Shown: one piece after another, positions 4,529 through 49,137 of the stretch
Layout of the letters: every line of letters starts with the position of its first letter
How positions within the stretch are numbered: position 1 is the stretch's first letter
Assembly: GCA_049698695.1 (NCBI GenBank)
Contig: JBAVYH010000216.1
Coordinates: forward strand, 6,992-70,991
Length of the DNA: 64,000 bases
Direction: 5' to 3'
From: Bryobacteraceae bacterium
GTDB lineage: Bacteria; Acidobacteriota; Terriglobia; Bryobacterales; Bryobacteraceae
Notes under the pieces: generated by a model
Seen by the model: the letters and a program-made list of their open reading frames with translations, nothing else
The model's database searches: none
What the model was told of the DNA's origin: nothing
Made by a program: the position numbers and the translations under genes

Positions 4529-5854
4529 GTGCCCGCCAAGACCTTCTACCTGGAAACCTTCGGCTGCCAGATGAACGCGCACGACTCCGAAAAGGTAGTC
4601 GGCACGCTGATGGCGAAGGGCTACGCGCAAGTGGCCACACCGGAAGAAGCCGGGCTGGTCCTCTACAACACCTGCAGCATCCGCGATAAAGCCGAGCAAA
4701 AAGTGTACCACCGCTTGCAACAGTTCAAGCGCAACGGGAAGGACAAGGTGATTGGACTGCTCGGCTGCGTGGCGCAGCAGGAGGGCGAGCGGATTTTCGA
4801 ACGCGCCCCGCACGTCGGTCTGGTGTGCGGCTCGGCCAGCTACAACAAGCTCGGCGAGCTGCTGGTGCAGATTGAAGCCGGCGACAGGCGGGTCACCGGA
4901 TTGAGTCTCGATACCGATGAGGCCTTCGACACGCCTTTCACCCGGCGCGACAACCCGCACCGCGCTTACATCGCCATCATCGAAGGCTGCGACAAGAGCT
5001 GTGCTTATTGCGTGGTGCCGTTCACGCGCGGGCCGGAGCGCAGCCGCACCAGCGATAGCGTGATGGCCGAAGCGCGCCGCCTGGCTGCGGAAGGATACAG
5101 CGAGATCCAGCTCCTGGGGCAAAACGTCAACAGCTATCGCGACCCAACGCCGGCCGGCTGGAATTTCGCGGCGCTGCTCGCGCGTGTCGCGGAGATTCCG
5201 GGAATCCGGCGCGTGCGTTACACCACATCCCATCCGCGCGATTTTGGCAAAGACATCGTGGACGCTATGGACGCGAATCCCGTGCTTTGCGACCACGTCC
5301 ACCTGCCGGTGCAGTCTGGTTCGTCGAACGTGCTCGCCAAAATGGACCGGCTGTACACACGCGACGAATACATGCAGCGTATCGGCTGGCTGAAGACCGC
5401 GCAGCGTCCTTATTCCATCACCACCGACATCATCGTTGGCTTTCCCGGCGAGACGGAGAAGGACTTCGAGGCCACGTTGACCCTGCTCGACGAAGTCGAA
5501 TACGATTCGCTGTTCAGCTTCAAGTATTCGCCGCGCCCGAACACGGCCGCCCTCCGCTTCGAGGACCACATCCCTGAGGAAGAGAAGCAGCGGCGCCTCG
5601 AGATCGTGCAGGAGAAGCAGCGCGCCATCCAGATCCGCCGCAACGCGGGGCTCATCGGCAGCCTGAAGGAGGTGCTGGTGGAGGGCCGCAACCAGGCCCT
5701 GGCGCAGTGGATCGGGCGCACTTCGGACAACCGCACGCTGAACTTCACCCATCCCGAAAACGGCGCCGCTTCCCTGGTCGGCCAGTATCTGCCTGTGCGC
5801 GTCACGCGCGCCGGCCCCAACTCCTTGGTGGGCGAGAGCGCAACTGTGGTGTAA
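4529..5854 (+). CDS. miaB: tRNA-2-methylthio-N6-dimethylallyladenosine synthase MiaB (radical SAM methylthiotransferase)
   Basis: FYLETFGCQMNAHDSE N-terminus, radical SAM CDKSCAYCVVP cluster motif and a C-terminal TRAM-like region. GTG start at 4529. Confidence 0.9.
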   Translation: MPAKTFYLETFGCQMNAHDSEKVVGTLMAKGYAQVATPEEAGLVLYNTCSIRDKAEQKVYHRLQQFKRNGKDKVIGLLGCVAQQEGERIFERAPHVGLVCGSASYNKLGELLVQIEAGDRRVTGLSLDTDEAFDTPFTRRDNPHRAYIAIIEGCDKSCAYCVVPFTRGPERSRTSDSVMAEARRLAAEGYSEIQLLGQNVNSYRDPTPAGWNFAALLARVAEIPGIRRVRYTTSHPRDFGKDIVDAMDANPVLCDHVHLPVQSGSSNVLAKMDRLYTRDEYMQRIGWLKTAQRPYSITTDIIVGFPGETEKDFEATLTLLDEVEYDSLFSFKYSPRPNTAALRFEDHIPEEEKQRRLEIVQEKQRAIQIRRNAGLIGSLKEVLVEGRNQALAQWIGRTSDNRTLNFTHPENGAASLVGQYLPVRVTRAGPNSLVGESATVV

Positions 5855-5875
5855 TTGAGTTGGGAGGAGGGCGGC

Positions 5876-6361
5876 ATGGAAGTGGAAATGAAAATTCGCG
5901 GCCTGATGATGGACCCGGTCACCAATATGCCCATCGTCATCCTCAGGGACGTGAGCGGCAATTCTGTGCTCCCGATCTGGGTGGGTGTTTACGAAGCGAA
6001 CGCCATCGCGCTCGAAATCGAGAAGGTCTCCACTCCGCGGCCCATGACCCACGATCTCATCAAGAGCCTGCTGCTCGGCCTCAACACCGCGCTGCGCAAG
6101 GTGGTGGTGAGCGAACTGAAAGACGACACGTTCTACGCCGTCATTTGGCTGGATCGCGACGGGGAAACCATCAGCGTGGATTCGCGGCCGAGCGATGCCC
6201 TGGCCCTGGCGCTGCGCCTCGATTGCCCGATTTACGTGGAAGAGACCGTGCTCAAGTCCTCCAGCAAGGCCACCAACGCCGCCGACAAAGTCAACAACGA
6301 AGAGTTGCGGCGGTGGCTCGAAGGCCTCAATGATGAGGACCTCGGCCGCTATAAGATGTGA
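5876..6361 (+). CDS. Bifunctional nuclease (BFN/DUF151) family protein
   Basis: MKIRGLMMDPVTNMPIVILRD...RPMTHDL...RPSDALALALR is the typical BFN pattern. ATG 5876 is preceded by GGGAGGAGGG. The track start at 5855 is a TTG with no RBS. Confidence 0.75.
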   Translation: MEVEMKIRGLMMDPVTNMPIVILRDVSGNSVLPIWVGVYEANAIALEIEKVSTPRPMTHDLIKSLLLGLNTALRKVVVSELKDDTFYAVIWLDRDGETISVDSRPSDALALALRLDCPIYVEETVLKSSSKATNAADKVNNEELRRWLEGLNDEDLGRYKM

Positions 6362-6663
6362 CGCCCGAAACCGCCGCGCGCCTGGCCGGCTGCGGAATCC
6401 AGTTGGCCGCCGAATCTCCGGAGTACAGCATGTTCACCCGCGATTCCTGCGTGGCGCTAGCGAATCCGGGCGCGGCGGTGGGAATCGGCAGCACAGGTAT
6501 GATGACGGAACGCGGCCTGGCGTTCCTGGTGTGGCGCGAAGGCCTGCCGTATCTCGCCGCCAAGGGCCGCGAAACGCCCGCCAGCTCAGCGCAGGTGGAC
6601 GAGATACGGAAGTTTTCTTTGGATTTGAAACGCGCGCTGGGCGTGGATTCGGGCGAGGCGTAG
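6358..6663 (+). CDS. Hypothetical protein, translationally coupled to the BFN gene
   Basis: GTG start overlaps the upstream TGA stop (GTGA). Codon usage resembles neighbouring genes. No recognisable domain. Confidence 0.5.
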
Positions 6664-6715
6664 CACGCCGCGCCACGCGTCCCTCTGCGCGAAACTGGCT
6701 GCCTCACAAGAACGC

Positions 6716-7927
6716 ATGACGCTCGACGAACAACTTTCTTACCTGCGGAAAGGCATGGCGGAGATCATTCGCGAAGAAGATCTCCGCGAGCGGCTGGTCG
6801 CAGCCGCCGCCTCCGGCCGCAAACTGCGCATCAAGGCCGGCTTCGATCCGACCGCGCCAGACCTGCACCTGGGCCACACCGTGCTGCTGCGCAAGATGAA
6901 ACACTTTCAAGACCTCGGCCACACGGTGATTTTTCTGATCGGCGATATGACCGGCCTGATCGGCGATCCCACCGGGCGCAATGCAACGCGCCCGCCGATG
7001 ACGCGCGAGGCGATTCAAGAAAACGCCGAAACTTACAAGACGCAGGTGTTCAAGATTCTCGACCCCGAAAAGACCGAGGTCCGCTTCAACAGCGAGTGGC
7101 TGGAGCCGATGAAGTACGTCGACATCGTGCGCCTGGCGTCGCACTACACGGTGGCGCGCATGCTGGAGCGCGACTATTTCTCCAAGCGCCTGCGCGACGG
7201 CATCCCGATTTCGATGCACGAGATGCTCTACCCGCTGGCGCAGGGCTACGATTCGGTGGCCCTCCAGTGCGACGTGGAAATGGGCGGCACGGACCAGAGA
7301 TTCAACCTGCTGGTGGGGCGTGAACTGCAAAGCGATTTCGGACAGCCACCGCAGATCGTCTGCACCACGCCGCTGCTCGAAGGCACCGACGGCATCAACA
7401 AAATGTCGAAATCGCTCGGCAATTACATCGGCATCGCCGAGCCGCCCGACGTGATGTTCCGCAAGGTGATGCAGATCTCTGATGAGCTGATGTGGCGCTA
7501 TTACCTGCTGCTCACCGACAAGAGCGAAAGCGAAATCGCCGCCTTGCGCGCGCGTGTGGCGGATGGCTCGCTGCACCCGATGGAGGTCAAGATCGCGCTG
7601 GGCAAAATGATCGTCGGCGATTATCACCCGGCCGCGGAGGCGGAACGGGCGGCCGGGGTCTTCGACAGCGTGGTGCGCCACAAGCAGGTGCCGGACAAAA
7701 TCGAGACCGTCGCGCTTCCGCAGGAAGTGGTGAAGGACGGCGCCATTCGCGTCGACAAACTGCTGGCGCGCATCGGCCTGGCCGAATCGGTTAGCGACGC
7801 CGTGCGCAAGATCAAAGCCGGCGCGGTGGAGATTAATGGCGCGAAATGGACGGCGCTTTCTTGGACGGACAACTCGCCGGAGTTGCTCATTCAAGTGGGC
7901 AAGAACTGGCGAAAGGCCATCCGGTAA
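6716..7927 (+). CDS. tyrS: Tyrosine--tRNA ligase
   Basis: Class I HIGH-type motif (DLHLGH), KMSKS motif and a C-terminal S4-like domain ([14 protein letters not shown]). Confidence 0.9.
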
Positions 7928-38846: not shown

Positions 38847-40997
38847 TTACGGGAGCACCGTGAAATCCGTCCACTGGCTGGCCGCTATGGCTTTTCCGCC
38901 TTGCTGCTCGGTCGCGATCACTTGCAGATCGTAGTCGCCGGGAGTCAGTCTGTCCGCCAGTTTCAGCGCGCCGAACGCGGCCGGACCACGGTCTTTCATT
39001 TCCACCAGCTTCGCCGGCGCCGAGTATATCTCCTTGCCATCGCGTAGAACGCGCACGCGCGTCTCCAGGTCCACTTTTGACCTTTTCTTGGCGCCGTTCT
39101 CAATCGCGCAAAGAAACTCCACCAAGCCGCCGCGCTTGAACTGCCGCAGCGCCGGCGTGATGTCAAGCAGCTCGGACGCCCAGGGCGACCGTTCGCCATC
39201 CCGTAGTATCACGCTGGCCAGGGCGAGTCTTGCCTTTTTCAGATTCGGGATCTCGATGAACTGCGTGGCCGAGCCAATCTTGCCCGTCGCTTCGTCCCGC
39301 ACCGCCGCGCGAATCTGGTACGCACCGCGCTTCGGCACCGGCACGTCCAGCGTGTACAAAGCGCCATCCCGCAGCGCGTCGGTCATCCTTCCCGCCGCCA
39401 CCTGCACGTTGTAGATGCGGCCCACCGCGGCCAGCGGCTGGTCACCAGCACCGGTGGCGACCACGAACAGCATAACCCGCGACCTGTCGCTGCCATCAAG
39501 GTCGTGCTCCCAACTCAGGTCGGCTGCGTTGATCCGAAGCAGATTGCGAACCACGGGACCTCGCTTCGGAACCTCCGCGTACAGCGCCGTCAGCCGCAAC
39601 CCCACGCCGGAAGACTTGAACGGCGACAACATGGCGGCACGCAACTGTTCGATCGGCGTGTTGAACTTGGGAACCGTTTCGTCGTCGGTTTCCCCGAAAA
39701 ACCCGGACCGCGAGCGAACCTGCAGCCCGGCGCGCGTCACTTTCACCTGGATGCGGTGAAAGCCGCGCCCGCCGTTCTTGCCTTGCCACGTGCTTTCCAA
39801 CGGATGATACCCCAGCAGGTAGTAACCCGCCTGATCCTCCAGCACCCGCGCGAGCCCCCAATTCATGTCGTTGCCGTTGTCGTAGGCCAGCCCGCCCGTC
39901 TGCCCCGCGAGGTATGCGAGATTCTCCTCTTGGACCTCGTTGCTGAGGTCCCTTTCGTCATTGACGCCAACATGGGTGTGGTTGTTTAGGGTGGTGTCCC
40001 CTGGTACCCCCGCCGTCTCAGTCAGCTCCGGGTTGTCCTCCGCGCCCGGTTGCAAAGTCTGTGCTCCAGTTGCGCGCATGGTGTAAATCACGGTGCCCGA
40101 CCGGTTGGCCCGGTCGATCAGGAGCCGGAGCACGCGCACAACGTCGGCGTAACTTTCCGGGGCGTCGTGTGCCCGATGCGCGTTTGCTCTATGGACATGT
40201 GGACCAACGCCAGCCTCAAACATCTGAAGCCCGTCCGAGAACAGCACGATTGATTTGCGCCCAGGCATCTCGCGGAGCGCACCAACGATATAGTTGACCG
40301 CCCCAAGAGTGCCAACGGTGGCGAGCGCGCTGCTCCTGGCGTCATCCGGCCCGGAGCCACCGCTGGGGACAGAGCCGATCAAGTCCTCCCAGGACGAGTA
40401 CTTGCCGTATGGATCGAAGTACGTCGCGCCAAAGCGTCCATTGGGGTTCCAGCGCAAGCCGTTGATGATCGACAGCAGCACCCGTTTATCGGCGCTGAAT
40501 TGCTGCAAGGCGCCCGATCCGGCGCCAGTCCGGCAAATCGCCACCAGGTCGCCTGGCTGCATCTGTTCGTTGACAAACCTGCGCAGCGACCTGCGCACGA
40601 GTGCCATGCTTTCGAAGGAGAGGCCGAGGTCGTCCACCATCAGCACGATGGTGCGCCGCACGTCTTCCGGGCGAAGCTGCGCGAGGGGTGGAGGCGGCAA
40701 GGCATCAACGGGCTTAGGCGAAAGCTTTTCACGGGCCGCCTCGAGTTCCGGGGTTACCTGGACATACGAAAAGTGCGTCAACTTCTGCAGCTTGCCATCT
40801 TCGAAGACCTGGAACTCTTCCGGTTTGAGATCTGTAATGTGATGTCCTTTGGAATCGGTCACGACGGCGTCCACTTGCACCAATGTCGAGGTGACGCGGA
40901 AAACCGTGGCCGGCTGCTGGGAGTCCGGCGCCGGCGCCGCGGGCTGTTGCCCGGAAGCGAACAACGCACCCAGGAAGAGGCCAGCCGCTGCCTTCAT
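38847..40997 (-). CDS. Secreted VWA-domain protein (acidobacterial VWFA type), paralogue 1
   Basis: Signal peptide MKAAAGLFLGALFASGQQP. VWA block TIVLMVDDLGLS (DxSxS-like MIDAS region). Long beta-rich C-terminus. Closely similar to the upstream gene. Confidence 0.8.
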   Translation of the reverse strand: MKAAAGLFLGALFASGQQPAAPAPDSQQPATVFRVTSTLVQVDAVVTDSKGHHITDLKPEEFQVFEDGKLQKLTHFSYVQVTPELEAAREKLSPKPVDALPPPPLAQLRPEDVRRTIVLMVDDLGLSFESMALVRRSLRRFVNEQMQPGDLVAICRTGAGSGALQQFSADKRVLLSIINGLRWNPNGRFGATYFDPYGKYSSWEDLIGSVPSGGSGPDDARSSALATVGTLGAVNYIVGALREMPGRKSIVLFSDGLQMFEAGVGPHVHRANAHRAHDAPESYADVVRVLRLLIDRANRSGTVIYTMRATGAQTLQPGAEDNPELTETAGVPGDTTLNNHTHVGVNDERDLSNEVQEENLAYLAGQTGGLAYDNGNDMNWGLARVLEDQAGYYLLGYHPLESTWQGKNGGRGFHRIQVKVTRAGLQVRSRSGFFGETDDETVPKFNTPIEQLRAAMLSPFKSSGVGLRLTALYAEVPKRGPVVRNLLRINAADLSWEHDLDGSDRSRVMLFVVATGAGDQPLAAVGRIYNVQVAAGRMTDALRDGALYTLDVPVPKRGAYQIRAAVRDEATGKIGSATQFIEIPNLKKARLALASVILRDGERSPWASELLDITPALRQFKRGGLVEFLCAIENGAKKRSKVDLETRVRVLRDGKEIYSAPAKLVEMKDRGPAAFGALKLADRLTPGDYDLQVIATEQQGGKAIAASQWTDFTVLP

Positions 40998-41029
40998 AGC
41001 TTCATTCTCACTGATGGCGACTCTTCGCG

Positions 41030-43174
41030 TTACGGAACCACCGTGAAATCCGTCCACTGGCCGGCCGCCGCGCCTGTGGTGCCTTTGGCCGCGTTTCGCT
41101 CGGCCACGATCACTTGCAGGTAGTAGTCGCCGGGAGTCATGTTGTCCCCCAGTTTCAACGCGCCGAATACAACCCGGCCGACGACCGGCATGTCGATCAG
41201 CCGGGCCGGCGTCGAGTAGACTTCCTTGCCATCGCGCAGAACCCGCACGCGCGTGGCCATGTCCACATCCGGTCCTTTCTTGCGGCCCTTCTCAACCGCG
41301 CAAAAATATTCCAGCGAACTCCCCCGCTTGAACTGCCGCAGCGCCGGAACGATGTCCAGCATGTCGGGCCTGGCCGACCGGTCGCCGTCCTGCAGGATGA
41401 CACTCGCCAGCGCGAATCCCTTCTTCTTTAGCTCCGGGATCTCGAGGAACTGGGTGGCCGAGCCGATCTTGCCCGTCGTCTGGTCCCGCACCGCAACGCG
41501 AATCTGGTACGCCCCGCGCTTCGGCACCGGCACGTCCAGAGTGTACAAAGCGCCATCCCGCAGCGCCTCGGCCATCTTTCCCGGCGCCACTCGCAGATCG
41601 AAAACGCGGCCCACGGCCGCCAGCGGCTGGTCGCTGGCGCCGGTGGCCACGCCCACCAGCATGACCTGCGCCCAGTCGTTGCCGTGGTCGTCGAGCTTCC
41701 AGGTCAGGTCGGCCGCATTGATGCGCAGAAGATTGCGGACCACCGGGCCTCGCTTCGGCGCTTCGGCGTACAGCGCAGTCAGCCGCACCCCCACGCCGGA
41801 GGACTGGAACGGCGACAACATTGTGGCGCGCAATTGTTCCGCCGGCGTGGTGTAGCTCGGCAGCGTCTCGTCGTCGGTCTCTCCGAAGAACCCGGACCGC
41901 GAGCGAACGTGCAACCCCGCGCGCGTCACCTTCACCTGGATGCGGTGGTAGTCGCTTCTGCCGTTCTTGCGCTGCAATGTGCCTTCCGGCGTTTGAAACC
42001 CCAGCAGGTAGTAACCCTCCTGGTCCTCCAACACCCGCTGCAGGCCCGAATTCAGATCGTTGCCGTTGTAGTAAGCCAGGCCTCCGGTTTTGTCAGCGAG
42101 GTATGCGAGATCCTGTTGCAGGACGTTGTTGACAACGTCTCTGCCGCCGCCAATATGCGTCAGGGCGTTCAGCGCCCCGTTCGCTTCCCCCCGCGTCATT
42201 TGATCCAGTTGCGGGTTGTCCTGCGCGTCCAATTGCAAAGTCTGGAGACCGGTGGCTTGGATCGTGTAGATCACCGTTCCCGAACGGTTCGCCCGGTCAA
42301 TCAAGCGGCGCAGCGCGGCAGTGACGTCGGCGTAACTGTCCAGCGACTCGCCTGTACCAGGGCTTTCAAACAGTTGGATTCCATCGGAGAAGAGCACGAT
42401 GGATTTGCGCCCGGGCATCTCGCGAAGCGCACCCACGATATAGTTGACTGCCCCGAGCGTGCCGACCGTAGTGATGGCAGTGTTCTCGATGTCATACCGC
42501 ACATCGAGCGACCGGGAATCGCCGCTGGGAACAAACCCGGACGCGCCGGCCGGCCCGAACTTGCCATATGGGTCGAAGTAGCTCAGGCCGAAGCGTCCAT
42601 TCGGATTCCAGTGCAAGCCGTCGATGACCGACAGCAGCACTCGCTTATCGACGCTGAATTGCTGCAAGGCGCCCGATCCGGCGCCGGTACGGCAAATCGC
42701 CACCAGGTCGCCCGGCTGCATCTGCTGGTTGACGAACTTGCGCAGCGAACCGCGCACGAATGCCATGCTTTCGAAAGAAAGGCCGAGATCGTCAACCATC
42801 AGCACGATGGTGCGCCGCACGTCTTCGGGGCGAAGCTGCGCCAGCGCGGGAGGTGGTAACGCCGACACGGTGTTGGGCGAACGCTTCGGCCGCTCGGCCT
42901 TGAATTCCGGTGCGGCCTTATGTTCCGATGCCACTTGGACATACGAAAAGTGAGTCAGCTTCTGCAGCTTGCCGTCCTCAAAGACCTGGAAGTCTTCCGG
43001 TTTGAGATCGGTGATGTGGCGCCCTTTGGAATCGGTTACCACGGCGTCCACTTGCACCAAGGTCGAAGTGACGCTGAAAACAGCAGTTGGCTGCTGGGAG
43101 TCCGGAGCCCGCGCCGCGGGCTGCTGCCCGGAAGCGAACAGCGTGGCAAGGAAGATGCCGGCTATTGCCTTCAC
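41030..43174 (-). CDS. Secreted VWA-domain protein (acidobacterial VWFA type), paralogue 2
   Basis: Same architecture and long identical peptide runs as 38847-40997 (e.g. ALYTLDVPVPKRGAYQIR, TIVLMVDDLGLSFESMA). Confidence 0.8.
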   Translation of the reverse strand: MKAIAGIFLATLFASGQQPAARAPDSQQPTAVFSVTSTLVQVDAVVTDSKGRHITDLKPEDFQVFEDGKLQKLTHFSYVQVASEHKAAPEFKAERPKRSPNTVSALPPPALAQLRPEDVRRTIVLMVDDLGLSFESMAFVRGSLRKFVNQQMQPGDLVAICRTGAGSGALQQFSVDKRVLLSVIDGLHWNPNGRFGLSYFDPYGKFGPAGASGFVPSGDSRSLDVRYDIENTAITTVGTLGAVNYIVGALREMPGRKSIVLFSDGIQLFESPGTGESLDSYADVTAALRRLIDRANRSGTVIYTIQATGLQTLQLDAQDNPQLDQMTRGEANGALNALTHIGGGRDVVNNVLQQDLAYLADKTGGLAYYNGNDLNSGLQRVLEDQEGYYLLGFQTPEGTLQRKNGRSDYHRIQVKVTRAGLHVRSRSGFFGETDDETLPSYTTPAEQLRATMLSPFQSSGVGVRLTALYAEAPKRGPVVRNLLRINAADLTWKLDDHGNDWAQVMLVGVATGASDQPLAAVGRVFDLRVAPGKMAEALRDGALYTLDVPVPKRGAYQIRVAVRDQTTGKIGSATQFLEIPELKKKGFALASVILQDGDRSARPDMLDIVPALRQFKRGSSLEYFCAVEKGRKKGPDVDMATRVRVLRDGKEVYSTPARLIDMPVVGRVVFGALKLGDNMTPGDYYLQVIVAERNAAKGTTGAAAGQWTDFTVVP

Positions 43175-43212: not shown

Positions 43213-43220
43213 CTATTAAG
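43213..43220. repeat. Target-site duplication, left copy (CTATTAAG)
   Basis: Identical 8-mer directly abuts both IS ends. Confidence 0.8.
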
Positions 43221-43244
43221 GGTGATTATATACTTAACAAAATA
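43221..43244. repeat. Left terminal inverted repeat
   Basis: GGTGATTATATACTTAACAAAATA compared with the reverse complement of the right end, GGTGATTATATACTTGACAAAACA. The first 15 nt are identical and there are 2 mismatches in 24. Confidence 0.85.
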
Positions 43245-43304
43245 GGCGCGTGAGAAGTCAGCAGACGCGGTTTCTTGGTGTGCCGTGGTGAGACATGGAA
43301 ATAT

Positions 43305-43469
43305 TCAGGCCGTCTTCTTCGCCCGAGCCTTTTTTCTGTGAGCCCGCTTCCACGCCGCCTCTCGTTTCAGGATCTCTTCCTTCGAGACCGTGAACATCGT
43401 ATGGACGGCATTGTTCATCCTCTCAGCGTCCGTGTTGCCGGATACGTGCGGTGCTGGTAGTGGTTTCAT
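43305..43469 (-). CDS. 54-aa lysine/arginine-rich small protein, coupled to the PIN gene
   Basis: ATG overlaps the PIN stop (ATGA). Encodes MKPLPAPHVSGNTDAERMNNAVHTMFTVSKEEILKREAAWKRAHRKKARAKKTA. Below the track size cut-off. Confidence 0.5.
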   Translation of the reverse strand: MKPLPAPHVSGNTDAERMNNAVHTMFTVSKEEILKREAAWKRAHRKKARAKKTA

Positions 43470-43873
43470 GGATTTATCGAAATCACCTTAACGCCACTGG
43501 CTCGATGCATCGGTTTCGTGGATTTTTCCGTCGTTATAAGTTCCTCTGCCTCGGCAACAAGGGCGCATGCCACATGAATTGCGTCGATACCGGAAATACC
43601 GGTTCTTCCGCCTTCATCGATAGCGAGTGTCATAAGTTCGTCGCTGCTTGGCACACGTGTCATGCTGTTCTTGAAGAATTCTTCATAGAACTGCCTCTCA
43701 TCTTCGTTTTTGTGAAAGGTGCATTTCGGCAGCAGTTCAACCTTCACGTAATCACTTGTGACGTATTCCCTCAATGGGTCGTACAAGAACGAAAGGGCTG
43801 TGTCCGCCAGCGCTTTGTCGCCGCGGACAGCAGCAATCAAAACGCCAACATCGATATATGTCCGAGTCGGCAC
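43466..43873 (-). CDS. PIN-domain nuclease (VapC-like toxin)
   Basis: Acidic residues are spaced as in PIN domains: YIDVGVLI (Asp), VKVELLP (Glu), GIDAIHVA (Asp), ITTEK. GTG start. Confidence 0.75.
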   Translation of the reverse strand: MPTRTYIDVGVLIAAVRGDKALADTALSFLYDPLREYVTSDYVKVELLPKCTFHKNEDERQFYEEFFKNSMTRVPSSDELMTLAIDEGGRTGISGIDAIHVACALVAEAEELITTEKSTKPMHRASGVKVISINP

Positions 43874-43889
43874 TTATGCCTGGCCTTAG

Positions 43890-44165
43890 TTATAACCATC
43901 CGCGCGTTTCGTTGATTTCCCGCTCCAGGGCGTCTGGAGACAAAGGCTGGCGGCCGCTGTCAATGAGATGCTGGCGGAGAGACAACACACGTTCCCTGGA
44001 TCGCTCTAACTCGGGCGACATCGTTGTTACCGTACTGCCAACATACACAGCCGGATTCTCATAGCGTGGCACCGCAATCTCCACATTGCATGGGGATATT
44101 ACGTACGAAGGCGGTGTGTTTCTTAGTGCTTCCTCAATCTTCTTCGGATCGATCAACAATAACAT
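43890..44165 (-). CDS. Small protein upstream of the PIN gene (candidate cognate antitoxin)
   Basis: Occupies the antitoxin position, 16 nt upstream of the PIN gene. The start is uncertain: ATG 44165 overlaps the upstream gene by 32 nt, and an internal ATG at 44021 would give 43 aa. Confidence 0.45.
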   Translation of the reverse strand: MLLLIDPKKIEEALRNTPPSYVISPCNVEIAVPRYENPAVYVGSTVTTMSPELERSRERVLSLRQHLIDSGRQPLSPDALEREINETRGWL

Positions 44166-45057
44166 GGAGTGGCTCCCTATTCAAGGTTTGGTCGTAATAG
44201 TGTTTCCGTCTAATCCACTTGAAACCTTCATGTTTCGTGACGGCCGCAATTTCAATCGGGCCGCCAATGATCTGCGGACCCGGAAGAAATCGACTGTACA
44301 TTATTGATGCGTGAACAAGAAACTCGGCGAGGTCTATCGCGTCCTGAATCGGCATCGGTGGAAATACAATAGGAGCCTGCAATCTGGCAACCAAGATGGG
44401 GTTTAATTGCTTGAACAATTGCTCGGGCGATACTGGCTCCTGTTGCCCCTGCGAGGCACTGACCTCAGCCAATATCTGAAACAATAAAGGGCTGAACCCG
44501 ATCACGATCCTCTGAACTACCTCCGGTGCGCCACCCCAACTGATGCCAGCTTGATCTGAGGGACGTAGTTCGCTCGGCGGTGTTGGCTTACCAGCTTTGA
44601 TCTCAATGCCCCATGATTCGCCAAACCTCCCGGTTATTCCTCCAGTCGTCGAGTAGCCACCAAGCAAGAAACCTATATTCATGCCCAAGAGAGTTGCGGC
44701 AGGCTGTTTCTCACATTCGGCACCTAGAAACTTAGCGACTATCTCTGCCACGCCCCGCATCGTGTAATTATCTGGGTCAAATTCGAAATCGAACTGTTTT
44801 GCTTTTTCGCCATCCATTAATACAGCCCGGAGATCTTTCATCAGCGTACCGATAGAGGCGTTGCCAATGCTGCCCGATCCGAACGTTACGATTCCAATCG
44901 GTCTTCCCTTGTAGAGATTAAAAATCTTGTTGGCGTTATCGTATACTTTCGCGACTCCAGCCACGGTCCCTGGAACCACGGACACCGACAGGGTGGATGC
45001 ACTATCGGCGGCAATAACCAGCCCATCGTGAACGGCGATCAAGATCGCTATGCTCAT
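44134..45057 (-). CDS. Proteasome-beta/HslV-like Ntn-hydrolase-fold protein with ~100-aa C-terminal extension
   Basis: After Met removal, SIAILIAVHDGLVIAADSAST aligns position-for-position with the mature beta-subunit N-terminus, giving Ser1 and Asp17. NANKIFNL matches the Lys33 block, TFGSGSIG the Gly47 block and LLGGYSTTGG the GGxD..G block. The ATG is 6 nt after the transposase stop. Confidence 0.65.
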   Translation of the reverse strand: MSIAILIAVHDGLVIAADSASTLSVSVVPGTVAGVAKVYDNANKIFNLYKGRPIGIVTFGSGSIGNASIGTLMKDLRAVLMDGEKAKQFDFEFDPDNYTMRGVAEIVAKFLGAECEKQPAATLLGMNIGFLLGGYSTTGGITGRFGESWGIEIKAGKPTPPSELRPSDQAGISWGGAPEVVQRIVIGFSPLLFQILAEVSASQGQQEPVSPEQLFKQLNPILVARLQAPIVFPPMPIQDAIDLAEFLVHASIMYSRFLPGPQIIGGPIEIAAVTKHEGFKWIRRKHYYDQTLNREPLHVIVDRSEED

Positions 45058-45063
45058 TTACGC

Positions 45064-46047
45064 TTACCTCGATTCTGACGCCTGAGGTTGATCCAACCTC
45101 CGCTCAGGGCTGGCCTTCCCGGTCAGCGCGTCAAACGTGACGCGCTTTCCTACCATACCAGAAACGGCTACGGAAAAGCGTTCAGCGTCCGTCAATTCCC
45201 GACTGTTGAAACGGAACGCCTGTTCATCGAGGTAGCGGAACAGATGGAAGGGCTCAACGCTGACGTAGGTTCCACCGAGACCGCGCTTCAAGAGACTCCA
45301 GAAGTTCTCGATTCCGTTCGTATGCACCCTGCCATCGACATAGGCTACAGCGTGGTCAATCACCTGATGCTGGAATTCGTCAAGCCCCTCGTACGATTTC
45401 AGCGCATCGGTGTAAAGGGCGGCACCCGCCTGGACATGCCGCCGGACCTCAGCCTGAAGTGCATTCTTCTTGCGGTTCGGAACCACCGAGGTGCGGACCC
45501 GACTGTATTTTTCGCCGTCGCCCCGTTCAAGGATACCCATCACGGCGGCCTTGTCTTTCCCTCCAGTGCCAGTGATGACACGCGCACGCTTCGCCGTGTG
45601 CATATTTCGCGCCTTGCCGCCGATAAAAGTTTCGTCCACTTCCACGTGGCCTAGAAGCTTATCGGCAGAATCCGAGTTGAGCATCAGCCGAATCCGATGG
45701 TCCAGAAACCACGCGGTTTTCTGGGTCACGCCAATAGCCCGCGCCACTTCGCAACTGCTAATCCCGTTCTTGGAGTTCACAATCTGCCACATAGCCATCA
45801 GCCATTTGTCCAGACCGATAGGGGAATCCTCCATCACGGTTCCCGTCTTCAGCGTGAACTGGGGAGCATCGTGCTTCTCCCGGCAATGCCACCGGTTGTA
45901 CTTTTTCAGGAATAGCACGTTTGCGGAGCCGCACCGTGGACAAGTGACGCCCTTCGACCAACGGCGAGCAACGAGGTACGCCCGGCAATTCTCGGGCTTC
46001 GAAAAGTATATGATCGCTTCCTGAAGTGTGCTGGGTTCCTGTTCCAT
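45064..46047 (-). CDS. IS1595-family DDE transposase
   Basis: N-terminal zinc ribbon (CPRCGS...WHCREK), HVEVDETFIGG, AAVMGILER, YTDALKSY and TNGIENFWSLLKRG blocks typical of IS1595 transposases. Confidence 0.85.
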   Translation of the reverse strand: MEQEPSTLQEAIIYFSKPENCRAYLVARRWSKGVTCPRCGSANVLFLKKYNRWHCREKHDAPQFTLKTGTVMEDSPIGLDKWLMAMWQIVNSKNGISSCEVARAIGVTQKTAWFLDHRIRLMLNSDSADKLLGHVEVDETFIGGKARNMHTAKRARVITGTGGKDKAAVMGILERGDGEKYSRVRTSVVPNRKKNALQAEVRRHVQAGAALYTDALKSYEGLDEFQHQVIDHAVAYVDGRVHTNGIENFWSLLKRGLGGTYVSVEPFHLFRYLDEQAFRFNSRELTDAERFSVAVSGMVGKRVTFDALTGKASPERRLDQPQASESR

Positions 46048-46053
46048 GCTTTT

Positions 46054-46082
46054 ATTCTAGGGCACTTCGACTGTTTTGTCAA
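46054..46082 (-). promoter_or_regulatory. Putative transposase promoter inside the right IR (leaderless transcript predicted)
   Basis: On the minus strand: TTGACA (46082-46077), a 17-nt spacer, TAGAAT (46059-46054), then ATG 6 nt downstream. No RBS. Confidence 0.45.
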
Positions 46083-46095
46083 GTATATAATCACC
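46072..46095. repeat. Right terminal inverted repeat
   Basis: See the left IR. The element ends ...AAGTATATAATCACC. Confidence 0.85.
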
Positions 46096-46103
46096 CTATT
46101 AAG
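46096..46103. repeat. Target-site duplication, right copy (CTATTAAG)
   Basis: Identical 8-mer to 43213-43220. Confidence 0.8.
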
Positions 46104-46164: not shown

Positions 46165-46569
46165 TCACTGATTCAGCTCCGGATGCTCCGCGACGCTCAA
46201 TATGTTGCCGTCGGGGTCCTTGAACCAAGCCACCTTGGCGCCGGTGGGTGTGGTCCAGATGCCCAGCTCGTCCTGTTTCATGAAATCGTAGCGCTCGAAG
46301 CGGATTCCGGCTTGCGCCAGGTCTGTGACCGCCGCAACGATATCCGGGACCTGCCAGCCCAACACCGTGCCTTGGACCGGTGCGCGCTCCTTGCCCATGC
46401 CCAGCCGCAGCATGATGCCGTTGGCGTCGAACACCAGCGCGAACGGCGGCTCTTCGCTGAGCAGCCGCAGGCCGAGCGTGTCCCGATAGAATTCCTTCGC
46501 GCGGGCGACATCGACGATGGTGACGAAGCCCACGATGTTGTACTTGCCAAGTCCTGTGTGCTGAGACAT
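46165..46569 (-). CDS. VOC (glyoxalase/bleomycin-resistance/dioxygenase) family protein
   Basis: 134 aa. Starts MSQHTGLGKYNIVGFVTIVDVARAKEFYRDTLGL and ends AWFKDPDGNILSVAEH, typical of VOC proteins. The rest of the 407-aa track ORF is an Arg/Ser-rich extension. Confidence 0.8.
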   Translation of the reverse strand: MSQHTGLGKYNIVGFVTIVDVARAKEFYRDTLGLRLLSEEPPFALVFDANGIMLRLGMGKERAPVQGTVLGWQVPDIVAAVTDLAQAGIRFERYDFMKQDELGIWTTPTGAKVAWFKDPDGNILSVAEHPELNQ

Positions 46570-46723
46570 GGGGATAGGATGCACCAACTCTCCGTTTGTC
46601 GCAAGACCAGGATCAGGCCGGTCGTTCGCGGCCAGAAAAGCCGAGCCGACTCCCGGCTCATCGGGCTTGAGAGCCCGCGCCACTGCGGTTGCAGCCGGGC
46701 CGCGCGTTATAATCCGGTTTCCG

Positions 46724-48226
46724 ATGCCACCAGAACGGCGGGCGGCGAGCCGGGGCGGGGAAGAAGCCCGTGCCGCCATCGAAACGTTTCTCGAAGGCGC
46801 GCGGCAGCCGGCGCTGCTGGAGCCGGGCGAAGAACTGCTGCCGCTCAGCGACGGCAACTTCGCCATCGAGCTGCGTGGCGCTCGTCTCACATTGCAGGCC
46901 TGGGACCGCACGCGCAACCTGACGCGGCGGGTCACCGGCGTCGGCGAGGCTTCGGCCGGGCGGCTGGAGATGGCGGTGGAGCGATTCGCGCGGCGCGAAG
47001 GGCGCATGTACCTGCTCGATCTGGCGCGCCGCTCGGGCGCCGAGATGGGCCGGCGCAGCGGACGGCTGGTCTTTCGCGAACGCTTCCGGCTGTTTCTGCG
47101 GCGCCAGTTTCCGGAGTGGACGCTGGCCGAGCTGTCGACCGAGCCGAACCTGGAGCACAGCCTCTCGCCGGCGTTCCCGCGCGCGTTTCTGCGCCACGGG
47201 CAGCACGCCTGGGCGGCCATCGCCTGCCCGCCGGAAGGCGACGCGGCCGGCGTGGTGTCGTTCGGCTTGATCTGGCTTGCGTATTTGCGGCGGCGCGAAC
47301 GCCGGGTAACGGTGGAGGGCCTGGCGCTGTACCTGCCCCAGGGCCACGAAGGCGCCGCCGCCCTGCGCCTGCTTTGCCTCGATCCCACCGCTGCTCGGTT
47401 CGAGCTGTTTCGTTACTCGGGCGAGGATTTCGTGGCGCCGGTGGACCCGCGCGACCACGGCAATCTGGATACACGCCTGGAACCGTTTCGCCGCCCGGCG
47501 CCCGGCGCGGCTGCCCGCTGGCAGGGAATCGCCGCGCTTCCCGGCGTCGAGCAAGTCGTCAAGAGCGGAGGCCGCGTCGGCCTCCGGGTGCGCGGCCTGG
47601 AGTTTGCCGAGTTGGACGGCGAGGACCTCTCGTTCGGGCTGGGCCAGCGTCATCCGGCCGGCGAGCATGACGTCGCAGCCATCGAACGCGTGGCTGAGGA
47701 GCTGGAGCGCGTGCGATCGCCCCAGTCGGCGGACCGCGACCACCCGCTCTACCGTCAGTACCCGGAAGCGTGGCTGGAATCGCAAGCCCGCGCGCATATA
47801 CAGATCCTGGATGCCACGCTGCGGCCCGAGCCGGTCTATGGACAGGTGCCCGCGTTCGCCGGCGGGGAGCGCGGCATCCTGGACCTGCTGGCGGTGAATC
47901 ATGCCGGCCGGCTGGCGGTGGTGGAGCTGAAAGCGTCGGCCGATCTGCACCTGCCCCTGCAGGCGCTCGATTACTGGATCCGGGTGAAGTGGCACCTGGA
48001 CCGGCGGGAATTTGGGCCAGCCGGTTACTTTCCCGGCGTCGAGCTGGACCCCAGCCCGCCGCGGCTGCTGCTGGTGGCGCCATCGCTCGAATTCCATCCC
48101 GCCACCGAAACCATCCTCGAATTCTTCTCGCCCGCAATCGATGTGGAGCGAGTCGGGATCGGAGTAGAATGGCGGAAGGGCTTGCAGGTGATGTTCCGCC
48201 TCGCCGGCTCCGAACGCCCCCGCTGA
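46724..48226 (+). CDS. Hypothetical protein with C-terminal PD-(D/E)xK (NucS-like) nuclease-fold motif
   Basis: GILDLLAVNHAGRLAVVELKASADLHLPLQALDYW (~47873-47980) matches the D...(D/E)xK core with the NucS-type context. The N-terminal ~380 aa are unrecognised. Confidence 0.6.
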   Translation: MPPERRAASRGGEEARAAIETFLEGARQPALLEPGEELLPLSDGNFAIELRGARLTLQAWDRTRNLTRRVTGVGEASAGRLEMAVERFARREGRMYLLDLARRSGAEMGRRSGRLVFRERFRLFLRRQFPEWTLAELSTEPNLEHSLSPAFPRAFLRHGQHAWAAIACPPEGDAAGVVSFGLIWLAYLRRRERRVTVEGLALYLPQGHEGAAALRLLCLDPTAARFELFRYSGEDFVAPVDPRDHGNLDTRLEPFRRPAPGAAARWQGIAALPGVEQVVKSGGRVGLRVRGLEFAELDGEDLSFGLGQRHPAGEHDVAAIERVAEELERVRSPQSADRDHPLYRQYPEAWLESQARAHIQILDATLRPEPVYGQVPAFAGGERGILDLLAVNHAGRLAVVELKASADLHLPLQALDYWIRVKWHLDRREFGPAGYFPGVELDPSPPRLLLVAPSLEFHPATETILEFFSPAIDVERVGIGVEWRKGLQVMFRLAGSERPR

Positions 48227-48231
48227 TTCTT

Positions 48232-49137
48232 ATGTTGACCTTACTAAAACAGGCGCGGAGCGCGCTGGCCCTGCTCAATCCGGAAGAAGTCCGCAGGCGC
48301 GCCGGCCGGCCGGTGACGGTCGGGCTGGTGGCGTCGAGCGACCCCGCATACGCAGGCCTCGAAGATCTTCTGGCCAGCGGCGGCGGGCTGCGCGAATTCG
48401 TTTTCCGGGCCGGCCGCCCGAACGCTCCGGAACGCGTCGATCTGGTGATTTGCGAAGCCGGCGTGGACGCGCCGGCGGGTGCTTACGCCCTCGATCCAGC
48501 CAAGCCCGGCGACACCCTGGCCGAGATCGCCCGGCAACGGCAAGACGTGGCACTGGCGCTGGCACGGCGCCATCCCGTATTTCGCCGCGCGGTAGTGGAC
48601 CACACCATTCAGACCGTGGCAGGCGAAAACGCCCTCTTCGCCGTCGCCACCGCGCTGCCGGACGTGGTACCCAACCTGATCGAAATTCCCTGGGCGTTGG
48701 GCGAATGGGCCTCCGACACCACCTTCCTCACCGCTAACCAGTTCCGCATGGCGTTCCTGATCGCCGCCGCGTGCGGCAAACCGGTGGGCTTCGGCGAGCA
48801 GAAGCTGGAGATTCTTTCGATTGGCGCCGGCGCGTTTGGCTGGCGGGCCCTGGCGCGCGAACTGGCGGGCAAGATTCCGTTTGGCGGCGGGTTGATTCCC
48901 AAAGGCGCCATTGCCTACGCCGGTACGTACCTGGTGGGCAAAGGGCTGGAGCGGCTGCACGCAGGCCAAGGCCGGCTGGGACGGCGGCAGCGGAAGGAAA
49001 TCTACCGGCAGGGCATCGAGCATGGCAGGGCCGTAGCAAGTTCGGCCTTGCGCTACGGCGGGCAGCAGCGGGCGGAAAGCGGAGATGCGGGACCGGCGAG
49101 CTTAAAGGCTCGTCCTGCCAGCGAAAAATCGGTGTAA
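48232..49137 (+). CDS. Hypothetical protein (DUF697-like C-terminal region)
   Basis: Starts 5 nt after the upstream stop. A hydrophobic/amphipathic block (FLTANQFRMAFLIAAACG...GAIAYAGTYLVGKG) resembles DUF697. Weak call. Confidence 0.5.
   Translation: MLTLLKQARSALALLNPEEVRRRAGRPVTVGLVASSDPAYAGLEDLLASGGGLREFVFRAGRPNAPERVDLVICEAGVDAPAGAYALDPAKPGDTLAEIARQRQDVALALARRHPVFRRAVVDHTIQTVAGENALFAVATALPDVVPNLIEIPWALGEWASDTTFLTANQFRMAFLIAAACGKPVGFGEQKLEILSIGAGAFGWRALARELAGKIPFGGGLIPKGAIAYAGTYLVGKGLERLHAGQGRLGRRQRKEIYRQGIEHGRAVASSALRYGGQQRAESGDAGPASLKARPASEKSV

Follow-up and report, generated by a model that had tools for sequence, protein, structure and literature searches.

A predicted proteasome-type hydrolase encoded with a small protein and a putative PIN-domain toxin in an IS1595-family element

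Apart from HslV, Anbu, BPH and connectase, the homologues of the proteasome are numerous and have no known role. A catalogue of 22 new families was drawn up by Fuchs, Alva and Lupas (2021; PMC8665760), among which are the “PMI” types (representatives are for example HDY66466.1 and WP_137109689.1), with insertions between the fold helices H3 and H4, no propeptide and a wide bacterial and euryarchaeal spread, PMI-4 being found in phages. No genomic context or co-occurrence pointing to a function was reported there for these homologues. Here we analyze a gene for a proteasome-like protein, predicted to be an N-terminal nucleophile (Ntn) hydrolase, in a stretch of 64,000 nucleotides of contig JBAVYH010000216.1 from a Bryobacteraceae bacterium (assembly GCA_049698695.1); this whole stretch is called the window. 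The gene lies in an insertion sequence (IS) of the IS1595 family and is followed by a small open reading frame (ORF), S91, and by the gene of a putative PIN-domain toxin.

The order hydrolase, small ORF, toxin is conserved, with interchangeable toxins belonging to at least four classical families (PIN, PemK/MazF, ParE and Doc). It offers the first hint at what a large orphan family of proteasome homologues may do. A constant tiny partner combined with swappable toxins leads to a testable hypothesis, i.e. a one-substrate protease controlling a toxin. The removal of antitoxins is a long-standing question, usually answered by Lon or Clp, and a system with a protease of its own would lend itself well to studying it. 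If the hypothesis is true, the hydrolase would be the first relative of the proteasome to have its physiological substrate encoded beside it, and one of the largest orphan families among proteasome homologues would gain a function. The locus also indicates that an IS1595-type element can carry a three-gene addiction or defence module as cargo.

The open-access papers and bioRxiv preprints searched contained nothing tying proteasome-like proteins to antitoxins or defence, nothing on the function of these homologues among the papers citing Fuchs 2021, and neither a three-gene module with swappable toxins nor its carriage by IS1595. Within that literature the module and its IS carriage are the new part, the protein family itself being probably known but uncharacterised (PMI).

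Predicted fold and active site of the hydrolase

The hydrolase ORF begins 6 nt past the stop codon of a transposase ORF, as the initial annotation of the window had it, and a Shine-Dalgarno sequence, GAGG, lies 9 nt 5' of its ATG. It is a genuine gene and not a chance ORF, because it has thousands of homologues: a word-indexed search returned 2,433 relatives, one of them 100% identical (in a Bryobacteraceae metagenome-assembled genome, MAG), and an exhaustive profile search returned 4,895 cluster representatives at E<=1e-3, 2,527 of which reach E<=1e-10. Viral (IMG/VR) contigs contributed 146 relatives; tblastn of GenBank phages and PLSDB plasmids gave no match. Every family member looked up is named “hypothetical protein” in RefSeq/UniProt. 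Taken singly, the hydrolase sequence has no match in Pfam (PF00227 included), NCBIfam or PADLOC, nor by phmmer among PDB sequences, and in PHROGs it matches only the unnamed phrog_5990, over the C-terminal 60 residues.

An AlphaFold (AF2) model was built from a diverse alignment of 94 family members (33-74% identity) and has a pLDDT (predicted local distance difference test) of 94.1 and a pTM (predicted template modelling score) of 0.89. Searched with Foldseek against the PDB, it gave 268 matches at E<=1e-3; the best 50 are 20S proteasome subunits throughout (probability 1.0, E~1e-7), with target-normalised TM (template modelling) scores of 0.63-0.67. In a viral structure library the matches are phage proteasome-like proteins. 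A model from 29 close homologues reached a pLDDT of 71, and its structural matches were already proteasome subunits only. At the sequence level the 94-sequence profile finds proteasome beta chains weakly among PDB sequences (E~2e-3), the 29-sequence profile gives chance matches only (HMG-CoA synthase), and 17 of the 94 relatives match PF00227 weakly (best E=4e-6). The modelled hydrolase thus has a proteasome-beta-type Ntn fold, i.e. a four-layer alpha-beta-beta-alpha sandwich, which bears out the proteasome-beta/HslV-like assignment first proposed for it.

In the 94-sequence alignment D18, S19 and G134 are invariant, while T/S2, K44 and G60 are conserved in at least 90% of the sequences. Profile alignments pair S2 with Thr1, D18 with Asp/Glu17, K44 with Lys33 and G62 with Gly47, and the LLGGYS block of the hydrolase with the GG(I/Y)D block of HslV, T. 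acidophilum beta and yeast beta4. The hhalign probabilities to E. coli HslV and T. acidophilum beta are 23-37%, individually weak and mutually consistent; in these low-probability alignments D18 and K44 face D17 and K33 of HslV, and E17 and K33 of T. acidophilum beta. The initial annotation had proposed a Ser1/Asp17/Lys33-type pattern together with blocks for the Lys, the Gly47 region and LLGGYS. All of them are present and conserved in the alignment; neither position 2, which in full-length homologues is nearly universally Ser or Thr, nor the Asp and Lys positions turned out to be variable among homologues.

Among 120 close homologues residue 2 is Ser in 109 and Thr in 2, whereas in 149 representatives of 50%-identity clusters Thr (115) far outnumbers Ser (12). 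From these sequences, Ser at position 2 is a clade-specific variant in a Thr family. A Ser nucleophile, at first called atypical, does depart from the family norm, but it is the norm of this clade. Full-length homologues start with M-[ST] in essentially all cases, and the longer homologue forms each have a start codon directly ahead of residue 2. As in HslV, the nucleophile therefore always comes directly after the initiator Met, with no propeptide in between. Proteins starting with Met-Ser or Met-Thr are typical substrates of methionine aminopeptidase. Ser2 is the predicted nucleophile once Met is removed, with Asp18 and Lys44 in the places of Asp17 and Lys33.

The AF2 secondary structure of the C-terminal part runs from a strand (171-176) through four helices (179-185, 192-202, 211-226 and 237-256) to two strands (269-274 and 278-283). 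Residues ~186-236 are a helical insertion of ~50 residues between the fold helices H3 and H4, and residues 237-283 are helix H4 and the final two core strands; what lies beyond the strand ending at 283 is short and of low confidence. The Foldseek alignments cover ~285 columns, i.e. the entire hydrolase, and the best-conserved part of the family is the C-terminal stretch PMPIQDAIDL...GGPIEIAAITKHEGFKWIxRKHYY. The model and the conservation thus rule out a C-terminal extension of ~100 residues, as this region had first been described: it consists of an internal insertion and core elements, and is the most conserved region.

Gene order around the hydrolase and carriage by an IS1595-type element

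Gene neighbourhoods were compared in 89 loci, of which 9 came from exact-protein look-ups and 80 from species-representative genomes. Hydrolase, S91 and PIN genes follow each other on the same strand in 37 of the 80 species-representative loci and in all nine look-up loci; S91 homologues occupy this position in 48/89 loci, and PIN homologues then follow in 46/89. In the 37 module loci the genes are tightly spaced: they overlap (-8 to -70 nt) or lie a few nt apart. This arrangement typifies the close relatives, those of ~49% identity or more, which belong mostly to Acidobacteriota. The PIN-toxin neighbour named in the initial annotation is thus present, and a small ORF stands between it and the hydrolase.

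The relatives at 40-46% identity come from Chloroflexota, Firmicutes, Actinomycetota, Planctomycetota, Nitrospinota, methanogens and others. In most of their loci a small ORF abuts the 3' end of the hydrolase gene, while the third gene varies: PemK/MazF, ParE-type, Fic/Doc, PIN and, weakly, GNAT-type genes were found (Table 1). Two further conserved families in this place are candidate new toxins; the longer one begins MYIIRGAEGFD..LRQGDIL. A small ORF and varied toxins therefore recur across phyla. Upstream same-strand genes were uninformative, and the distant representatives on short metagenome contigs offer little context.

Full-length relatives from viral contigs again have, in most cases, an abutting small ORF. 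The viral contig L121 encodes a hydrolase, a 72-aa ORF and Doc. Directly after this trio comes a gene (5596-6774) with a Schlafen/AlbA_2 domain, a domain known from defence-related proteins. On four other viral contigs (L103, L110, L113 and L118) the hydrolase and small ORF precede, instead of a toxin gene, genes that appear by eye to be of terminase/portal/capsid type. The role of the hydrolase in phages may differ from the bacterial one.

S91 has no match in Pfam, NCBIfam, PADLOC or PHROG, and its profile finds 76 proteins, all hypothetical. The family starts with M-[SL]-[LF]-[ST]-I-[DN] and has the elements Y-x-V-[ST] and V-S-G-x-V-Y-x-A-P-like; its N-terminal half is rich in S/T/V/Y, and its C-terminal helix reads ...RxxLxxLRRxIxxSGxxLxSxxxLxxEIxExRGR. 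In L026 (5884-6120) and L039 (5875-6114) an S91-type N-terminal half is joined to another C-terminus (FG[VT]H[IV][KR]EA...), with no PIN and no toxin gene downstream on the same strand. This suggests that the small protein is made of two parts. In L061 (3340-3597) the C-terminal tail is similar and no S91-type N-terminal half is recognisable. Ten small ORFs lying between a hydrolase and a classical toxin were compared with Pfam, and none of them matches an antitoxin or DNA-binding family. By eye, several of these ORFs have tails reminiscent of those with which classical antitoxins bind their toxins. We consider S91 a candidate atypical antitoxin or adaptor.

In the window, transposase, hydrolase, S91, PIN and a 54-aa ORF lie on one strand of a 2,877-bp element (43220-46096). 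The latter ORF has homologues (E~1e-30) at the same place in the IS copies L040 (6399-6620) and L041 (6610-6804). The transposase also has an N-terminal zinc ribbon (PF12760, E=1.9e-8). The element is bounded by a 30-nt inverted repeat (43219-43248 against 46068-46097) that is 90% complementary, and the inverted-repeat 20-mer occurs at exactly these two sites within the window (0 expected). Its ends are GGGTG...CACCC, with TATTAA on either side, and its G+C content is 49-58%, against 61-72% in the flanks.

Sister elements elsewhere enclose a transposase and the module in the same way, with the end consensus GGGgAtTAT...ACTTGAC. A target duplication of 8 bp is the norm of the IS1595 family. From the bounding inverted repeats and flanking repeats, here and in the sister elements, we conclude that the module moves as IS cargo, in line with the initial annotation. 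IS carriage is nevertheless the minority situation, an IS1595 transposase being found within 5 kb in ~7 of the 37 species-representative module loci. In L092 (1788-2741) an IS1595 transposase abuts a hydrolase relative of 41% identity, and the cluster representative P0247 (270 aa) is a chimera of an IS1595-transposase fragment and a hydrolase; the link to IS1595 thus recurs outside the clade of the window.

A putative promoter lies 5' of the transposase gene, partly inside the right inverted repeat, and faces into the element. Its -35 box, TTGACA, coincides with the motif ACTTGAC that the five IS copies all keep in their inverted repeats. This promoter may drive the entire co-directional gene string.

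The element is inserted between a 714-aa gene without Pfam match and a glyoxalase-family gene. The former (41030-43174, minus strand), just left of the IS, and its neighbour (38847-41057, minus strand, 736 aa) are tandem paralogues, very similar in sequence, with signal-peptide-like N-termini and no Pfam match. Right of the IS, long ORFs without Pfam match (46568-48226 and 47770-49137, plus strand) lie in DNA of ~70% G+C, and since many ORFs overlap there on both strands, gene calls need care.

Table 1. Coordinates of the features of the window (nt) and of compared loci.
Feature	Position or locus	Strand	Description
Proteasome-beta-fold Ntn hydrolase gene (fold predicted)	44134..45057	-	307-aa ORF, protein start MSIAILIAVHDGLVIAADSAST
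S91 small ORF	43890..44165	-	91 aa, overlaps hydrolase 3' end by 32 nt
PIN-domain (VapC-like) putative toxin	43466..43873	-	135 aa, Pfam PF01850 E=2.4e-7, start 16 nt after S91
54-aa ORF	43305..43469	-	overlaps PIN stop codon, no family match
IS1595-family DDE transposase	45064..46047	-	327 aa; PF12762 E=1.5e-40, NF033547 E=4.3e-53
Sigma-70-like promoter, putative (TTGACA, 17 nt, TAGAAT)	46054..46082	-	11/12, consensus match only
Left terminal inverted repeat	43220..43248		starts GGGTGATTATATACTTAAC
Right terminal inverted repeat	46068..46096		contains -35-like TTGACA
Flanking direct repeat, left	43214..43219		TATTAA
Flanking direct repeat, right	46097..46102		TATTAA
Sister element	L004		perfect 8-bp target duplication ATCCCGCA
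Sister element	L018		perfect 8-bp target duplication TTAACTCG
Sister element	L041		flanking repeat TACAAT
Sister element	L034		61-nt inverted repeats; transposase oppositely oriented
Third gene, PemK/MazF	L058, L078		E=1e-19, 2e-15
Third gene, ParE-type	L056, L076, L083		Pfam
Third gene, Fic/Doc	L065, L074		TIGR01550 “death-on-curing toxin” E=5e-19
Third gene, PIN	L059, L072		Pfam
Third gene, GNAT-type	L035		weak, E=1.7e-5, below gathering score
Third gene, conserved family of 211-238 aa	L049 (6191-6826), L050, L054, L060, L067, L069, L073		no Pfam/NCBIfam match
Third gene, conserved family of 156-179 aa	L048 (4228-4698), L053 (6140-6679)		no Pfam/NCBIfam match

A dedicated protease for an atypical antitoxin, and other explanations

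We favour, with a probability of about one half, a tripartite toxin-antitoxin (TA) module in which a dedicated Ntn protease acts on an atypical antitoxin. Removal of Met would expose Ser (Thr in most relatives) as the nucleophile of the hydrolase. The C-terminal helix of S91 would neutralise the toxin, here a PIN RNase, and its extended S/T/V/Y-rich N-terminal half would replace the usual DNA-binding domain of antitoxins. The hydrolase would bind and cleave this N-terminal segment, so that antitoxin stability, and hence toxin release, would be set by a dedicated enzyme and not by Lon or Clp. The trigger of cleavage might be phage infection or loss of the element. Transposed as a unit, the 2.88-kb element with its module and IS1595-family transposase would be stabilised by the module, or the module would give its host an abortive-infection-type defence. 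The initial annotation had speculated on a protease that controls the neighbouring TA pair. The small ORF and the unrelated toxins found across phyla speak, indirectly, for this idea.

Several points weigh against this proposal. We infer the contact between hydrolase and antitoxin from gene order alone. A proteasome-type protease devoid of an unfoldase is expected to cut unstructured segments only, and cutting the N-terminal half of S91 need not release the toxin. Homology between the small ORFs of different subclades was not detected (hhalign probability 2%), so a shared recognition segment, S/T/V/Y-rich, punctuated by prolines and N-terminal, is an impression only; we dropped a common homologous N-terminal module and kept the conservation of position. 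About 24 of the 43 distant loci have no recognisable downstream toxin. The detection of small ORFs was permissive and high-GC DNA gives spurious ORFs; the count of 88/89 loci with a small ORF is therefore an upper bound. Finally, neither the hydrolase nor S91 nor PIN has a match in PADLOC-DB v2.

The generalisation is more tentative than the proposal for the locus itself. It holds that there is a widespread class of tripartite TA or abortive-infection modules, in which a stand-alone Ntn protease is dedicated to a non-DNA-binding antitoxin and PIN, MazF, ParE, Doc, GNAT-type and further toxins can be plugged in.

The first alternative, unlikely in our view, starts from toxin-antitoxin-chaperone (TAC) systems: the hydrolase would bind the N-terminal segment of the antitoxin and protect or mature the latter, e.g. 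by a single activating cut, and would be needed for neutralisation and not for releasing the toxin. The architecture is the same, with a constant accessory protein for several TA families and an extra non-DNA-binding segment on the antitoxin (PMC5105189), and the hydrolase is encoded first, its translation coupled to that of the small ORF. The hydrolase nevertheless has no similarity to SecB, and its nucleophile, Asp and Lys are strictly conserved in more than 100 diverged representatives, which argues for catalysis rather than mere binding.

In a type VI-like scheme the small protein would be an adaptor bridging the toxin to the hydrolase, and the toxin itself would be degraded and in this way neutralised. 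There is a precedent, as SocA hands the toxin SocB to ClpXP, and the variable region of the small proteins changes with the toxin family while the protease is constant. This seems improbable because no unfoldase gene is nearby, folded PIN, MazF or ParE would be poor substrates for a bare proteasome-type protease, and several small-ORF tails look by eye like those of antitoxins that bind toxins directly.

That the small ORF is the most constant neighbour, and that L026, L039 and L061 have no recognisable toxin, would also fit a hydrolase acting as a toxic or defence effector in its own right and restrained by the small protein, the downstream toxin being a second, parallel effector. We regard this as quite improbable: most resolved loci have a classical toxin downstream, and there is no sign that the hydrolase is harmful.

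The hydrolase could also have an unrelated housekeeping or quality-control role and have come beside TA pairs through shared mobile DNA. No informative context was found for proteasome homologues in PMC8665760, many distant loci are without an assigned toxin, and the family occurs in IS elements and viral (IMG/VR) contigs. Such hitch-hiking is very improbable given that the same-strand overlap or abutment of the small ORF persists from 100% down to ~40% identity, that it spans Acidobacteriota, Chloroflexota, Firmicutes, archaeal MAGs and viral (IMG/VR) contigs, and that the partnered toxin family switches while the arrangement stays constant.

Least probable of all is a connectase-like transpeptidase that would ligate or transfer the small protein instead of degrading it. 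Connectase, a proteasome homologue that works as a monomer, has a single specific protein as substrate (PMC7980362), and the helical insertion may preclude stacked rings, as argued for PMI types in PMC8665760, but H1/H2, which connectase lacks, exist in the AF2 model of the hydrolase, and neither the recognition motif of connectase nor its context has a counterpart here.

Comparison with known systems

On the mobile-element side, the element of the window shares with the IS1595 family the DDE_Tnp_IS1595 domain with a zinc ribbon, the terminal inverted repeats and, in sister copies, the 8-bp duplications, its own flanking repeat being of 6 bp. A plain IS carries its transposase alone; this one takes along three or four further genes, one of them for a proteasome homologue. 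TA cargo is also known from transposons, for example of the Tn3 family (PMC7157771).

As in VapBC type II systems, a small closely spaced ORF precedes the PIN toxin gene, but here the small protein has no AbrB, RHH, PHD or HTH domain and a third gene is constantly there. The module shares with TAC systems, which are mobile and implicated in phage defence, a constant third protein associated with varied TA families and an antitoxin segment addressed, here putatively, to that protein. TAC systems use a SecB-like chaperone in the third role and have the extra segment at the C-terminus of the antitoxin. In the present module that role falls to a protein of predicted proteasome fold, an Ntn hydrolase with intact catalytic residues whose gene stands first, and the extra segment would lie at the N-terminus.

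With HslV (ClpQ) the hydrolase has in common the Met directly before the nucleophile, the Asp17 and Lys33 equivalents and the fold. HslV is however insertion-free, of ~175 aa, and forms double hexameric rings served by the AAA+ unfoldase HslU, whereas the hydrolase has 307 aa, a helical insertion of ~50 residues and Ser in this clade. No AAA+ or hslU-like partner gene lies beside the hydrolase family in the loci examined. We therefore rejected membership of HslV on account of the length with its insertion and of the neighbours, i.e. transposase, S91 and PIN and no AAA+ gene. Anbu and BPH have PF00227-detectable subunits of ~200-250 aa, and Anbu moreover ends in a long helix, H5, and is encoded in an operon of its own; these families were rejected as well, given the missing PF00227 match, the short C-terminus and the other gene context. 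Archaeal connectase shares the proteasome fold and has a single specific partner protein, instead of bulk substrates, to act upon, much as we propose for the hydrolase. It is a ligase restricted to methanogens, lacking H1/H2 and having a helical lid between S3 and S4, and none of these features is found here.

The closest described relatives are the PMI types (“proteasome homologs with multiple insertions”), which the initial annotation did not include among the known bacterial homologues that it named (HslV, Anbu and BPH). They share the proteasome-beta core, Thr/Ser1 with Asp17 and Lys33, the lack of a propeptide and the H3-H4 insertion, and the AF2 model of the hydrolase has this insertion, with no propeptide ahead of it. 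They also share the membership of a large, unannotated family spread over many bacterial phyla, Euryarchaeota and phage or viral contigs. Since the hydrolase matches this description, by which alone the two were compared, its family is very probably already catalogued in PMC8665760, PMI-2 or PMI-4 seeming the likeliest subgroup. What distinguishes the present locus from these types, for which that catalogue gives no context, is the small ORF, the interchangeable toxins and the carriage by an IS.

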